Positions 1,181 through 56,989 are shown, numbered from the stretch's first letter. The stretch is 64,000 nucleotides of DNA from Eledone cirrhosa (GCA_964016885.1 OZ024765.1:3472001-3536000); one strand, 5' to 3'. Translations and numbers: made by a program. Notes: a model not told the origin generated them from the sequence alone.

Positions 1181-1359
1181 CTCTCTATATATATGTATAT
1201 ATATATCTGTGTGTGTATGTATATATGTGTATATATATTTAGTTATGTAATAAACAACATAAGATAAAGTTGTTTATTACATAACTAAAAAGCTCTGTAG
1301 CCTACATAGAGCACTCTCTTTTCCTTTACCTTTCCTACGGAAATACTTCATTATATATA

Positions 1360-1752
1360 TATATATTGGTAAACGGAATAGAAAATGCTGACAAATTGTT
1401 CACAGTTGAAAAATGGTTTAATTAGGAATAAAAGAGTATTAGTGATTGTATGGGTTAGTATTCAGTTGTGGTTTTAAGTTTTTAAGTTTTTACCGGTTCA
1501 GATCAGATCAGATCAGATCAGAGCAAACAGCACGGACACTCTATCTCAAAATTATTTTTGAAAAGCATTTAGAAATGCGCAACCGGTAAAAACTTAAAAA
1601 CTTAAAACCACAACTGAATACTAACCCATACAATCACTAATACTCTTTTATTCCTAATTAAACCATTTTTCAACTGTGAACAATTTGTCAGCATTTTCTA
1701 TTCCGTTTACCAATATATAATAACTTGTGTGTTACACCTCTATTCTTTTAAC
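1360..1752. repeat. Fold-back element (~140-bp arms) in (TA)n
   Basis: 1360-1498 is the reverse complement of 1581-1718. Confidence 0.9.
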
Positions 1753-2796
1753 TATATATATATATATATATATATATATATATATATATATATATATATA
1801 TATATATATATATATATATATATATTTAGCTCTGTAACTTACATAGAGCACTCTTCATTCCTCTGACTTTTTCAATTTTCAACGGAAACTTGAATATATA
1901 TATATATATATATATATATATATATATATATATATATATATTAACTTGGGGAGGGTCATATTGTTGTAATAATATTGCCAGAATTAATAACAGAACACAC
2001 TCACTGTTTGGTTGGTTTTCGCTTCTGTGTCTTTTATATCAGTTAATTCGTTCGGTCCTCAATATTTACAATTGACTGACCAACGGTCAAAAAATACAGA
2101 TATAATATAGACACAAACACATATATATAGTCTAACAAAGTTCTTTCGTTGCACATCTGCAACATCGTCAGTGGTGCTATTATGTTCCTCCTGTTGTATT
2201 GTATATCTACGCCATCTTTATTTAATCTGTTTATTTATTTATTTATTTATTTTTGTCTTCTTCTCTGCGCATGCGTTTGCGTGTGTGTTCGTGTTTGGGT
2301 GACTGTATTTTGGTTATTGTATTCTATGTTAGTTTACTAGTGTGTTTATATGTGTTTTGGTTATTGTGCTTGTATATATATTTATTTATTTATTTATTTA
2401 TTTATATTTCTCTTAGGTCACTATTGTTTGTTTGGGTTTTGTTTGGGTTTTGTTTGGGTTTTGTTTCGACACACGATTTCATATCAAAACCTCGCAAAAT
2501 AAATACACACACACACACACACACACACACACACACACACACACACACACACATATATACATATATATATATATATATATATATATATATATATATATAT
2601 AGAGAGAGAGAGAGAGAGAGAGAGAGAGAGTGTGTGAGTGTATTATATTGAAAAGATAATAATATAATACACTCTGTATATAATACACACCTCGACACGG
2701 AAGTGAACCTAAACATCGAGTGCTCACCCGGGTGAACCTACAGTGACTCCAAGTTACACTCTCTCTCTCTCTCTCTATATATATATATATATATAT

Positions 2797-3392
2797 ATAT
2801 TGTAAGGTGCATTATTGGTTGTGTAAACTGGTCCAATAAATTTGTGTTACCAATATTAGGTTCTCCACGCTTTTGTATATCTCCAATTCCATTCAAGGGA
2901 GCAGCTAGACGATGTAAAACGGAGTATTTGTATCAAAATAAAGATCCGAAGGCAAGGTATAAATTTCCAAACATTTTAATCACGACACATGTTTCAATAA
3001 GAGATAGATCGATCGTGAAGCCATGATCGATTATCACTGATCTTGTCAGGTAAACTCACCGAGTTTATTCCCTCATATGAGTGAAGATTGATAATTTTCT
3101 CCCTCATATCAAGGATTTGAAGACAATTCATTTTCACCTGACAAGATCAGTGATAATCGATCATGGCTTCACGATCGATCTATCTCTTATAGAAACATGT
3201 GTCGTGATTAAAATGATTGGAAATTTATACCTTGCCTTCGGATCTTTATTTTGATACAAATACTCCGTTTTACATCGTCTAGCTGCTCCCTTGAATGGAA
3301 TTGGAGATATACAAAAGCGTGGAGAACTTAATATTGGTAACAGAAATGTATTGGACCAGTTTACACAACCAATAATACACCTTACAATATAT
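2797..3392. repeat. Fold-back element (~255-bp arms) in (TA)n
   Basis: 2797-3052 is a near-perfect reverse complement of 3137-3392. Confidence 0.92.
3134..3207 (+). ncRNA. Degenerate hammerhead (G8->A) in fold-back element
   Basis: TCAC-CTGACAA-long stem II-GAAA-CATGTG-TC^GTGA. Stem I is extendable with a bulge. Confidence 0.55.
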
Positions 3393-3601
3393 ATATATAT
3401 ATATATATATATATATATATATATATATATGTGTGTGTGTGTGTGTGTGTGTGTGTGTTTATTTTGAGAGGTTTTTATATGAAATGATATATATATATAT
3501 ATATATATATATATATATATATGTGTGTGTGTGTGTGTGTGTGTGTGTGTGTGTGTGTATTTTGCGAGGTTTTTGATATGAAATGATATATATATATATA
3601 T

Positions 3602-3803
3602 ATATTTACGATATTAAATAAATGGAAACTATATTTATAAAACCATATTTATTTCATTATATATAATGAAATAAATATGGTTTTATAAATATAGTTTCCA
3701 TTTATTTAATATCGTAAATATACTCCAAATACTTGTTGAGTGCTTTTATATCAGTTATAAATATTTACTCGTTGTAACCCAACAATTTAAATAAAACTTT
3801 GCA
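3602..3803. repeat. Loopless palindrome plus tail; same family as 16797-17152
   Basis: Arms meet at ~3660 (TTATATATAA). The tail contains TTGAGTGCT. Confidence 0.88.
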
Positions 3804-4081
3804 TATATATATATATATATATATATATATATGTAAATATGATAATAATGGAGCTGCGGCGTTGCAAATGGGTTACATATGAAAAAGTTTGTCCTTCATC
3901 AGTGGCCTTCCAACCGTCGTAGGCATTTCGTCGCTTTACTCGTTCCTATATATATATATATATATATATGGGGGGGGGGGGGGGGGGAAACCTTTTTATA
4001 ACTATCGTTACTTTGTTATATATATAGTTTGTGCCTTCGGTGGGCTATCTTCATGTCACATTATATAACTACGATGTTATA

Positions 4082-4272
4082 GGGCGGTGGATTGGCAGTA
4101 TCGGTGGAGGGTCGGACGCCATGCTTTCCAGCATAGTTACGGCCCTTTACGGTCTGAGTTCAAACCCCGCCGAGGTTGACTTTGCCTTTCATCCTTACGG
4201 GGTCGATAAAATAAAGTACCAGTAATGCACTGGGGTAATTGCTGGCCTTGTGCCAAAAAGTAGCAACAATTA
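4082..4272 (+). mobile_element. tRNA-derived SINE with Meta-type core (family S1)
   Basis: GGGCGGTGGATTGGCAGTATCGG head, B box GAGTTCAAAC and core GCCTTTCATCCTTACGGGGTCGATAAAATAAAGTACCAG. More than 10 copies in the window. Confidence 0.88.
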
Positions 4273-54416: not shown

Positions 54417-54703
54417 TAAATAAAACCCTTTTTGTATTGTTGACCATGTTATTCTTCACTCTTTCACTATATATATATATATATATATATATATATATAT
54501 ATATATATGAAGTGACAATAAGAATTGCAGTAGTTATATATTGTGTTATTCGCTTTCTAACTAAATAGTTCTGTTTTATACATAGAGCACTCTTTTTTCC
54601 ACTGCTTTTCCTTCGGAAATATTTGACATATTTATATATATATACATATATCATATGTCCCAAGGCTCTGATACCATCAACACTATAAACACAGAGCTGA
54701 CTA

Positions 54704-54759
54704 ACTGCTTGATGAGGTCATAGCCATTCAATGGCTATCATCGAAATATATATAACAGT
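54704..54759 (+). ncRNA. Hammerhead ribozyme, C3 mutated
   Basis: ACTGC-TTGATGA-GGTCATAGCCATT-C-AATGGCTATCATC-GAAA-TATATA-TA^ACAGT. Confidence 0.7.
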
Positions 54760-55641
54760 AAATAAAGGATTATGAATTCATGCAATTGACTTATGTTTCG
54801 TCACTATATATATATATATATATATATAGTGACGAAACAGAAGTCAATTGTATGAACTCATAATCCTTTATTTACTGTTATATATATTTATTTAGCAGTG
54901 AGATTTAGTTAACGTATGGAGCAGTACTGAGGAACGCCCCCAACCGTGACTAACCCCACTGAAAAGTTTCGTGAAATAGTCTTTTAAGACTATATAGTGC
55001 ATTTGTAGATTTCCCCAAATTGAAGGCTAAGTATTTCGTTCCTGATTTTATTTTGAGTTAAGATAGTATGGTTTTTCCCCAGCTTACACAAAATCTGAGG
55101 ATAAAATGTTTCTTCTTGACTTGTTTTGAATTAAGATGAATTATTTCTCCCATATCTTACGTTAAAAATATTTCATTTTGAGGCTATAGTCACTTATATG
55201 TTTGAATTATTGTCGGCTTTTTGCTTACATTAATTTCTCTATTTTCATATATATATATATATATATATATATATATATATATATATATATATATATAGCA
55301 CAATAGGATTTTGTATACATGCCTTTTTGGAAAATCTCTAAATCTCTGAAAGGGGTAATACATAGCCTTTTGTGTTGCTTGTATAATAAATTACTCTATT
55401 TTGAGCAGTGTTTAACTTCTCAACCTATCTTTACAATTTTTGTATATTGTTTGTGTAAAAAACGATATTTATTACTTATATATATTTATTTCTTATATAT
55501 ATATATATATATATATATATATATATATATATATATATATATACATGTATGTATGTAAAAGGTAAACAGAAATAACAACACAATCGGTGCAGTATATGGA
55601 AGATATATATTAGGTTAATGCTTGATATAGCAGGAAGAGGG

Positions 55642-55676
55642 TCTTAACGTTTCGGACGCTAGTCCTTCATCAGAGG
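55642..55676 (-). ncRNA. Minimal hammerhead ribozyme (GAAACGTT)
   Basis: Minus: CTGATGA-A-GGAC-TAGC-GTCC-GAAACGTT-AAGA. Confidence 0.68.
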
Positions 55677-56323
55677 CAAGAATGAGAATTAAGATAGATT
55701 GAGGGAATGGGCGGGCTGGAATTGGAAAAAATGTCTTTAGATAAAAATAACAGGTCTATATATATATATATATATATATATATATATATATATATATATA
55801 TATATATATACATATATATATATATATATACATAATTTGGTATACTTATGAAACATAATTTTGGTATATTTATATACATTATATATATATATATATATAT
55901 ATATATATATATATATATGAAACATAATTTTGATATGCTTATATACATTTTTTCTTCTCACTTAGATTTTATACCTAATTGTGTATGGTTGACGATATAT
56001 TTAATCGATTTCCACGTGCTATTGGAAATGCTGGGTAAATATTCTATGGCTGTTGATCGCGAATAGATGGCTGTCGTTTATTTATCTATTGTTTCTTCAT
56101 AGGTGTCTTTTAATCTTATAGCCTGGTTTAATTGTTTTTTTGTGTGGTTGATTATGCTGATTGGGAGAGGAGATGGTGTATATATTTTATCAAATGATTC
56201 TATGGACATACTTTATTGTATATATATATATATATATAGAAATTACAGTATAGAAATTGTTGTGAACGTGAAGCCAACAGTATTTCATAATATATATATT
56301 TCATAATATATATATATATATAT

Positions 56324-56532
56324 AGTTATGTAATAAACAACATAAGGCAATTATTTCATTTACCAGTGGTTTCTTGAAAGCAAACAAATTTTGCTTTCAA
56401 TCATCAGAATGCTTTCAAGAAACCACTGGTAAATGAAATAATTGCCTTATGTTGTTTATTACATAACTATTAAGTTCTGTAACCTACATAGAGCACTCTT
56501 TTTTCCTGGACCTTTCCGACGGAATTACTTCA
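56324..56532. repeat. Fold-back element with hammerhead and GAGCACT tail; family also at 1241-1350, 1826-1893, 54510-54627
   Basis: 56324-56382 is the reverse complement of 56410-56468. Confidence 0.88.
56357..56411 (-). ncRNA. Type-I hammerhead ribozyme
   Basis: Minus: CATT-CTGATGA-TTGAAAGCAAA..TTTGCTTTCAA-GAAA-CCACTGG-TA^AATG. Perfect 11-bp stem II. Confidence 0.85.
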
Positions 56533-56989
56533 TATATATATATATATATATATATATATATATATATATATATATATATATATATATATATATATATATA
56601 TATATATATATATATATATATATATATATATATATATATATATATATATATATATATATATAGAGAGAGAGAGAGAGAGAGAGAGAGAGAGATTTGTTTT
56701 GCAACCCAAACCAAACCAAACTGTTAGTGTGTTTTATTATATATTTCTGGCAATATAATAACAATATGACCCTCCCCAAGTATAACAATATAGATACATA
56801 TGAATATATATATATATATATATATATATAGAGAGAGAGAGATAGAGAGAGAGAGAGAATAATAATATATATGAATATATATATATGTACGTATGTATAT
56901 ATATACACACAGACACATATATATATATATTTCCACATATATTTTCTTGACTATTGTACGCGAAACCCTTCTTATGTATTCTCCAACCT

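Follow-up and report, generated by a model that had tools for sequence, protein, structure and literature searches.

The stretch analysed here, a window of 64,000 nt from Eledone cirrhosa (GCA_964016885.1 OZ024765.1:3472001-3536000; source assembly of 3.0 Gb in 1,796 contigs), contains numerous short elements that carry hammerhead ribozyme motifs and lie among (TA)n microsatellites. Overall, the window is very likely a graveyard of the 3′ ends of endonuclease-bearing Penelope-like elements (PLEs) that insert in (TA)n, each end comprising a pseudo-long terminal repeat (pLTR) and a tail, and the ends being nested in each other's TA flanks. Indeed, six of the eight families that were traced (A, B, P, K, N, and S) were truncated 3′ ends of PLEs bearing an open reading frame (ORF). 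A preliminary description of the window had proposed a community of short, non-coding ribozyme elements moved in trans by enzymes encoded elsewhere; its interpretation was partly supported, and its attribution of the hammerheads to PLE-type, (TA)n-inserting retroelements is borne out by the traced families, which lead into PLE ORFs. The finding adds members to known kinds of PLE and retrozyme, a kind already known in Octopus.

Hammerheads were searched for on both strands with a structural descriptor (stem I of at least 4 bp, CUGANGA, stem II, GAAA, helix III, and UH), and 200 dinucleotide shuffles of the window's non-repetitive segments served as the null model. Nine canonical type-I hammerheads were found, versus a mean of 0.02 (maximum 1) over the shuffles. 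When U3:A8 was allowed, 10 motifs were detected (the motif at −37105 being added) versus 0.07 in shuffled sequence; a looser core set gave 13 versus 0.37, and the bare CTGANGA string occurred 33 times versus 14.9 ± 3.7. The core, stems I, II, and III, and the UH site of a type-I hammerhead were all present in 10 motifs, with 0.07 expected. The motifs of the window, far more frequent than in the shuffles, are confirmed as real at the level of sequence, their catalysis being predicted. A count by hand gave 10 complete motifs and 16 near-cores with both halves, as well as three motifs reduced to the 5′ half and ten family-A elements reduced to the 3′ half, the last of which go beyond those of the preliminary description. 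The latter had placed about 20 cores or near-cores and at least 10 families in the window; every coordinate that it named holds a core or near-core, and about 19 families were counted, represented by 51 element pieces (about 10.5 kb) whose boundaries were placed by hand, partly at TA edges. Many of these pieces were revealed by self-BLAST to be fold-back palindromes, a feature absent from the preliminary description. An Rfam scan of the window at gathering score returned no match, and the best 150 of 772 hits ranked by E-value were all microRNA models placed on microsatellites and hairpins.

Several cores departed from the canonical form. At 15041 (family U) the 3′ half is intact and the 5′ core mutated, the core at 38890 has no helix III and a broken stem I, family I (40116 and 54306) has a stem II of about 75 nt, and the core at 54704 (family Q) has U at position 3. 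In B/D/E-type motifs, helix III was self-complementary in 48 of 51 cases. Family K combines U3:A8 with GCAA in place of GAAA, M carries a C3·A8 mismatch, and N is a near-core with a weak stem I. Among the three families with Hydra-type parents (see below), B is canonical, long copies of A mostly exhibit C3·A8 and sometimes U3:A8, and in P, position 4 is A, a base found in copies that are 100% identical over 69 nt. Lünse and colleagues reportedly described PLE hammerhead variants in 2017. The conserved non-canonical cores (K, P, M, and A, and those of loci L184, L193, and L209) are candidates either for new active variants or for shared dead ends.

The window is AT-rich, with 346 (TA)≥5 runs covering 8,106 bp. 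The boundary of the elements by (TA)n, as first described, stood for most pieces: 39 of the 51 had (TA)≥4 at both ends, but seven had it at one end and five at neither. Element ends defined by BLAST lay near TA in 78 out of 132 cases (about 10 entries being false, owing to a SINE fragment in the family-A reference); the share of control positions near TA was 13.5%, and of the ends of an abundant, not TA-flanked short interspersed nuclear element (SINE) of about 200 bp, 5 of 28 lay there. The view that much of the TA landscape is a target field held in that element ends strongly favour TA; however, only 43 of the 129 TA tracts of at least 20 nt touched an element end (2,405 of 7,541 bp, 32% of bases), a share that unrecognised or decayed elements could raise. 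TA runs made up 12.7% of the window versus 5.2% of the sampled genome (2.4-fold). Since hammerhead density was 2–2.7 times the average, in step with TA content, the window richly illustrates a condition found across the genome and is no special locus.

To trace the families, single-family genome searches were performed and the copies followed upstream and downstream; the loci retrieved (L plus number) total about 1 Mb and form a biased set. Family A, the commonest, appears in the window as a hairpin of about 200 bp. Of 30 loci picked by the family-A tail alone, two extend further 5′, and copies run at least 1.9 kb upstream into a frame encoding reverse transcriptase (RT), thumb, linker, and GIY-YIG endonuclease, which is common to three loci at 93–95% over 2.4 kb. 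The best 150 scored genome matches of a 190-aa piece of this protein were all at least 93% identical, 148 being stop-free inside, and 10 among these 150 lay in open frames of 784–795 aa; such near-identical open frames indicate that intact young family-A parents probably exist. The protein exhibits RWR and DKT (L143), and CxxC and CxH around conserved E and N, without CCHH. The family-A 3′ untranslated region (UTR) at L143:5410-9904 was seen to contain a host-SINE fragment of about 48 bp. In family B, about 1.7 kb separates the end of an ORF from the 3′ end downstream of it at L078, and the distance between two ORF ends is 4,001 bp; the CxCX5C linker is intact and CxH present, CxxC not being intact in the one copy read. 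A third Hydra-type ORF, with an intact linker, CxH, and CxxC, ends 935–976 nt upstream of family P in L050, L092, and L180. In A, B, and P, the GIY-YIG domain is C-terminal and without CCHH, and the copies insert in (TA)n. On these motifs, A, B, and P can be assigned as 3′ ends of PLEs with Hydra-clade protein motifs.

Family K was found downstream of the same GIY-YIG in 11 out of 12 loci of one Neptune-like cluster. Its parent exhibits YLDD, a CX2-5CxxC linker (L182), a C-terminal GIY-YIG, and a tail of about 40 nt; one cysteine of the endonuclease CCHH is changed in L182 (one locus). All 40 scored matches of family N cover the endonuclease end and the 3′ UTR, and in the window itself a 66-bp remnant of the family-N ORF with its linker cysteines (46079–46144) is joined to the 3′ end via an internal deletion. 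Family S lies on the same strand as a sister endonuclease, 350–580 nt downstream of it, at L016, L110/L043 (one place), L125, and L155. The N and S parents share CX4CxxC, a short spacer before the GIY motif, and a C-terminal endonuclease. These traits identify K as the 3′ end of a putative Neptune-like PLE and N and S as the 3′ ends of PLEs with a short linker, the short spacer making the latter parents appear Nematis-like. The joining of RT and GIY-YIG in one ORF to the hammerhead end is direct in A, B, and K; in P, N, and S, the protein parts read were the thumb or linker and the endonuclease. Moreover, the pLTR stands both before and after the ORF, as a partial tandem, in A (upstream of the ORF start in L139 and L143), B (L067, followed by a Hydra-type ORF start with RWR and DKT), P (L130 and L175, with the ORF start downstream), and K (L182 and L188). 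A Pfam GIY-YIG search of the genome gave 10,596 first-look candidates, of which 150 were scored; stop-free frames with RT and endonuclease reached 1,096 aa. The families had been described as lacking obvious linear similarity, which did not hold: stem I and helix III are alike in B, D, and E, and the tails of A, B, D, E, and F contain a common motif (T(T/A)GAGT(A/G)C, about 10 nt) that lies between the short 3′ end and the long one (e.g. 53905-53920). This likeness to A and B suggests Hydra-type parents for D, E, and F, and the motif is a possible protein-binding site.

Families C and L differ in that their tails continue into their own 5′ parts, giving head-to-tail units. The unit of C is about 475–480 nt, with a longest stop-free frame of 54 aa and many genome matches crossing the tail-to-head junction; that of L is 595 nt (spacing in L092), with a longest frame of 80 aa. 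These features identify C and L as non-coding tandem retrozymes, which would need enzymes in trans. A placement of C or L at the end of a neighbouring Neptune-like ORF was rejected, as different loci have different neighbours or the closest arm is in inverted orientation. At L211 (G000:C21:8000001-8010000), copies spaced 310 nt apart, the third of them inverted, form a further tandem retrozyme family.

Well-sampled families were characterized by two fixed 3′ ends, variable 5′ ends, and often a head-to-head inverted arm; the features of endonuclease-bearing PLEs, i.e. 5′ truncation, an inverted 5′ copy, and an optional tail, were all present. In family A, the distance from the cleavage site to the onset of TA is 17 nt in 21 of 32 short copies; among the long copies, it is 97 nt in 25 of 33. 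Bimodal 3′ ends were also observed (6-nt bins) in B, C, D, E, F, J, K, and P, with a spacing of about 40 nt in K and about 66–110 nt in the others (J being known from 4 copies). The inverted arm halts at the short 3′ end, in family B at one same site in 10 of 30 loci, and among the first 100 listed B/D/E-type cores, 26 close neighbour pairs were divergent versus 4 for each other orientation. Of the scored family-A copies selected by their tail, 25 out of 26 keep only 1–36 nt upstream of GAAA and thus end in the loop or the 3′ strand of stem II (L097, one of four unscored loci, is a long copy). This places a truncation hot spot of family A in stem II, leaving hairpins that lack the 5′ core half and are predicted to be ribozyme-dead. 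The inner span of family-A palindromes was 16–91 nt in 20 copies, the fold centre varying by copy, and 12 of 19 fold junctions were within ±3 nt of blunt, the other seven having 5–51 nt of filler. In 43 palindromes, concordance between arms was 0.91 versus 0.66 expected at one site and 0.84 versus 0.46 at another; the arms share variants above chance, which argues for one template for both. Priming of the folds by native stem-II pairing was rejected, given that the native loop and 5′ strand are absent and the inverted arm is a copy of the 3′ strand.

From published PLE biochemistry, we propose that the GIY-YIG domain would nick AT-rich DNA, here (TA)n, and that RT would begin inside its RNA at two sites, giving a short and a long end with the tail between them. 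Synthesis would usually halt after 100–400 nt, and the inverted arm would be copied from the same template, either when the cDNA folds back or when the RNA is primed a second time. The parent would be transcribed as a partial tandem, the hammerhead cutting the read-through RNA as a dimer, most likely in the service of the parent. The inserts would themselves become TA targets for later ones, hence the nesting. Because a head-to-head pair offers a single ribozyme-sense copy per transcript, paired with its antisense, most window copies are expected to be silent; solo or head-to-head copies are probably catalytically silent passengers.

The comparisons below refer to those passages of the cited sources that describe the elements concerned. 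The Hydra clade is (TA)n-inserting and hammerhead-bearing, and Hydra-1_Obim of Octopus bimaculoides is listed with its hammerhead (PMC8557442). Families A, B, and P resemble this clade in the C-terminal GIY-YIG without CCHH, the RW-basic motif (RWK as published) and DKT in place of DKG (both seen in A and B), the CxCX5C linker, the CxH after a conserved N, the hammerhead near the 3′ end, and insertion in (TA)n; they differ in their units of 3.6–4.0 kb and tails of 66–110 nt, versus 30–40 published. Whereas a single Octopus Hydra family is listed there (PMC8557442), at least three (A, B, and P) are present here, with very high copy number and intact young frames, and the published Obim hammerhead is unlike every window core (PMC8557442). 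The K parent is like Neptune in its YLDD, linker, endonuclease position, and tail length, and the N and S parents are like Nematis in CX4CxxC and the short spacer before GIY, a likeness that rests on the linker (PMC8557442); unlike Neptune and Nematis, they have variant cores (U3:A8 with GCAA in K, a weak stem I in N). As in minimal PLE hammerheads, the motifs are type-I with a short palindromic helix III and a U3-A8 variant, many families occur per genome, and the motifs are mostly single and tied to truncated PLEs, with opposite-strand pairs 100–700 bp apart (PMC4209133). Such minimal motifs cleave weakly and not as monomers (PMC4209133), and in vitro, ribozyme cleavage of a PLE was protein-assisted and not needed for insertion (PMC11167929). 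Families C and L are like non-long-terminal-repeat retrozymes in their head-to-tail non-coding units of a few hundred nt and type-I hammerhead (PMC7229834; 10.64898/2026.07.22.740005), which are proposed to derive from PLE pLTRs (Li et al. 2026, 10.64898/2026.07.22.740005); they differ in being dispersed partial tandems, known here from DNA, that have inverted arms in the manner of PLEs and end in (TA)n at two 3′ sites. Work in vitro on Poseidon of Anolis likewise described an AT-rich target and a tail generated by two internal start sites of the RT (Frangieh et al. 2024, PMC11167929), and in Penelopes of Adineta, inverted pLTRs are arranged head to head, their palindromic junctions being attributed to self-priming (Arkhipova et al. 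2013, PMC3846280). A stem-II truncation hot spot is not reported in the relevant passages on Poseidon (PMC11167929) or Adineta (PMC3846280), and this truncation and the sharing of variants between arms were not found in the open-access literature.

Several observations weigh against the reading of the window as a PLE graveyard. Folding energy was clearly below that of shuffles (z < −3) in only 2 of the 10 cores, which is weak evidence, and activity of the non-canonical K, P, M, and N cores and of A with its C3·A8 is uncertain even in the parents. In the family-A linker, one cysteine of CxCX5C is changed in each of three copies; two pieces of this protein were not recognised by Pfam profiles, and its BLASTP match to a Neptune-like ORF was weak (E 2e-5). 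The units of A (about 3.6 kb) and B (about 4.0 kb), with their long 3′ UTRs, exceed the "generally <3 kb" of Hydra. While the clade calls of all six families rest on motifs rather than an RT tree, those of A, B, and P also draw on by-eye likeness to a published alignment. Arms were discordant in 4 and 7 of the 43 palindromes at the two sites, in a sample partly picked by likeness to a window palindrome. Finally, pairwise extension over the retrieved loci reached no ORF or unit for eleven families (D, E, F, G, H, I, J, M, Q, T, and U), some of which may be non-autonomous.

The preliminary model, in which Naiads drive the movement in trans of short, non-autonomous retroelements with ribozymes, now appears improbable for the window as a whole. 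It is true in kind for the C and L retrozymes, the eleven untraced families leave it room, and, as first stated, there was no GIY-YIG domain among the 106 window ORFs of at least 55 aa in non-repetitive segments (Pfam). The accompanying statement on RT requires correction: RVT_1 (E 1e-16) was detected in a long interspersed nuclear element (LINE) present as two 5′-truncated copies (24365-25536 and 543-1185, both −), whose 3′ ends abut (TA)n and which we take to be RTE-like. This LINE was rejected as an engine because it shares no 3′ end with the elements, one 13-nt word common to the interior of family C being taken as chance. Against movement in trans, six of the eight traced families lead to ORFs of their own, and the hint of an ORF-less sister form of family B failed, L065 being a unique deletion. 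Naiads have an N-terminal endonuclease, no canonical hammerheads, and only dead remnants in cephalopods (Craig et al. 2021, PMC8557442); every ORF linked here has a C-terminal GIY-YIG, and canonical hammerheads are present.

Spread of the family-A hairpins as a DNA-based palindromic unit, like a miniature inverted-repeat transposable element (MITE) and independent of any PLE, would fit the 40 scored copies that match the full 190-bp palindrome at 96–100% and the fixed, TA-flanked ends. We consider it very improbable, given that the fold centre and junctions vary by copy as described above, that the same ends are found on 1.5-kb inverted copies and on ORF-bearing copies, and that the two termini are not inverted repeats of one another. 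Fold-back chimeras are a known artefact, but an origin of the palindromes as chimeras of assembly or amplification is extremely improbable: the arms are 78–100% identical (most 86–97%), indicating divergence in place, the inverted arms end at family-specific sites, and the same architecture is published for other animals (PMC8557442, PMC3846280). That the (TA)n flanks were partly made or lengthened by insertion, rather than being pre-existing targets, is unlikely, though less so than the other alternatives; TA at both ends of most pieces, the raised TA fraction and hammerhead density of the window, and the position of PLE RTs as sisters of telomerase (PMC8557442) point that way. However, two thirds of the TA tracts touch no known element, the RTE-like LINE likewise ends in TA, and a PLE endonuclease cuts AT-rich DNA in vitro (PMC11167929), which explains the flanks without synthesis. 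The PLE graveyard remains our preferred reading.

At the genome scale, the exact pattern of the B/D/E core type had 85,837 matches versus 35 for the reversed pattern; by comparison, 2,000–9,000 minimal PLE hammerheads per genome are published for schistosome, coelacanth, and Xenopus (PMC4209133). In the retrieved loci, 47 of 51 exact matches had at least 5 of 8 stem-I pairs, which the pattern did not demand. The family-A half-core had 53,765 matches versus 0 for the control, a palindromic copy possibly counting twice. In twenty 10-kb stretches at round coordinates, we found 14 canonical motifs, or 17 including U3:A8, from which about 210,000 complete motifs are extrapolated genome-wide (Poisson 95% 115,000–352,000); this 200-kb sample held 6 exact-pattern matches versus 5.7 predicted by the whole-genome count. 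The biased set of retrieved loci contained 137 distinct complete hammerheads in 38 clusters, 21 of which had at least two members. Published counts include 126,247 in axolotl (28 Gb), more than 6,000 in coral, and about 5,000 in mussel (PMC7229834), and 235 Rfam hammerhead hits in giant squid. As descriptors differ, such comparisons between studies are rough, and the density found here is an apparent record among the published counts compared. Relative to the open-access literature, it is the scale, and not the kind, of which no earlier report was found: passages on repeats in a 2026 O. vulgaris annotation give 31 recently active Penelope-like families with no mention of ribozymes, and the word "ribozyme" does not occur in those of Marino et al. 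2022. The families are covered by public DNA contigs from one sample (three runs), which are not long enough to reach across a palindrome; their summed depth over family A was very high, which is not a copy number.

Table 1. Hammerhead cores, element copies, and SINEs located in the 64,000-nt window.
Feature	Position	Strand	Remarks
Nine canonical cores	+4450, +17056, −16987, +20107, −19963, −20538, −33242, −53509, −56407		structural descriptor
Family A, 3′ end of Hydra-type PLE (putative), fold-back palindrome	53771..53963	+	GAAA, 6-bp helix III, GUC site kept; 5′ core half lost; 80-nt tail
Family A fold-back and tail	13758..13958	+	
Family A fold-back and tail	26351..26545	+	
Family A fold-back and tail	33356..33545	+	
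Family A fold-back and tail	19452..19669	−	
Family A, stem-II truncation, tail	17357..17520	−	
Family A palindrome without tail	10194..10309	.	adjoins family B copy
Family A, two fragments	39582..39905	−	39582–39627 and 39858–39905
Family A short arm	50088..50171	−	part of fold
Family B, 3′ end of Hydra-type PLE (putative), complete hammerhead	53311..53540	−	core 53509; unit about 4.0 kb
Family B, complete hammerhead	20350..20634	−	core 20538; 5′ fold-back 20567–20634
Family B-type core	10301..10423	−	core 10356; stem I 3′ strand gone
Family C, 3′ piece of non-coding tandem retrozyme (putative), complete hammerhead	33106..33258	−	core 33242; unit about 475–480 nt
Family L, piece of non-coding tandem retrozyme (putative)	36955..37312	−	U3:A8 core 37105, palindromic helix III, GUC site; unit about 595 nt
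Family D, complete hammerhead and tail	4397..4635	+	core 4450; parent untraced
Family D tail, short fold-back	36778..36927	+	coreless
Family E head-to-head inverted pair	16799..17147	.	complete cores −16987, +17056; parent untraced
Family E fold-back and tail	3607..3802	+	122-bp perfect palindrome; coreless
Two E-type tails, tandem	53544..53755	+	
Family F inverted pair	19897..20235	.	complete cores −19963, +20107; parent untraced
Family F-type near-core and tail	14359..14600	+	near-core 14442
F-type 5′-half core and F tail	39030..39455	−	core 39047; tail 39359–39455; SINE in between
Family J fold-back, complete hammerhead in inverted arm	56322..56531	.	core −56407; tail on +
Family J fold-back and tail	1240..1348	+	coreless; other J tails 1815–1893, 54510–54632
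Family K, 3′ end of Neptune-like PLE (putative), fold-back	1352..1751	+	variant core 1558 (U3:A8, GCAA)
Family N, 3′ end of short-linker GIY-YIG PLE (putative)	1947..2499	−	near-core 2171, weak stem I
Family N, 66-bp ORF remnant (linker) and 3′ end	46079..46472	+	near-core 46228
Further family N ends	19700–19881, 34334–34445, 56700–56803		
Family S fold-back 3′ end, N-related PLE (putative)	28185..28402	.	window copy coreless; also 20255–20330
Family P, 3′ end of Hydra-type PLE (putative)	37818..37930	−	variant core 37883 (A at position 4)
Family P tail palindrome	36494..36705	.	
Family M inverted pair	2801..3386	.	near-cores −3049, +3138 (C3·A8 mismatch)
Family G core without helix III	55550..55690	−	core 55673; also −38921 (38755–38960), −15285 (15101–15310)
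Family I, about 75-nt stem II	54207..54467	+	core 54312; second copy 40013–40280, core 40122
Family H, 5′-half core near 3′ end	49751..50040	−	core 49814, no GAAA after; also 3838–3938
Family Q near-core, then inverted arm	54645..54889	+	near-core 54709; canonical core in relatives
Family T near-core	54895..55246	+	near-core 54927
Family U, 3′ half intact, 5′ core degenerate	14998..15118	−	15041 of the preliminary description
SINE copies	4075-4277, 20883-21077, 34087-34286, 34519-34709, 39164-39362, 47203-47389, 47529-47738, others		

Some elements of the window stand apart. Both 3′ ends of family H lie just past the 5′ core half, with no downstream GAAA in the copies seen; RT may start within stem II in this family, or its motif may be permuted. 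At 14652-14827 (X) lies a TA-flanked palindromic family with no recognised core; the hammerhead 3′ half at 26047-26266 (R) is degenerate and has no relative among the retrieved loci. No clear host gene was recognised by Pfam profiles among the same window ORFs. A Pif1 helicase 2B fragment at 42715-42924 (−; E 4e-8) is likely a Helitron remnant, and a repeat with a C2H2 zinc-finger frame (13067-13702 and 45460-46080), 95–96% like copies in L177, L178, and L194, is probably a LINE 3′ end. The SINEs at 34087–34709 form an inverted pair, and tandem arrays were located at 62120-63750 (period about 21 bp), 30770-31146 (about 45 bp), and 15970-16585 (about 30 bp).

A further-reaching interpretation, which we hold to be doubtful, is that young Hydra-type PLEs still move and account for a density of about 70 complete hammerheads per Mb in this genome, higher than in any of the published counts compared; RT would stall in stem II and fold back, and the resulting tens of thousands of hairpins could be a main source of the adenosine-to-inosine hyper-editing and the exceptional double-stranded RNA (dsRNA) potential that octopus is reported to show. 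The 200-kb sample contained 16 short-range inverted repeats, of which 9 matched window elements and 13 had a TA end. Passages of Porath et al. 2017 report that dsRNA is in excess in octopus and that Penelope of lizard is heavily edited, with no breakdown of octopus repeats there.

The scale, an extrapolated 2×10^5 or so complete motifs in 3.0 Gb versus the axolotl count in a genome of 28 Gb, appears to set this genome apart. It is easy to classify short TA-flanked palindromes as MITEs or SINEs, as microRNA hairpins, or as unknown repeats, a risk illustrated by the Rfam microRNA models placed on such hairpins and microsatellites. Moreover, the intact, near-identical Hydra-type ORFs, together with thousands of young insertions, constitute a natural data set for the inverted arms and tails of PLEs, and the family-A protein is a candidate enzyme for studying how PLEs make them.

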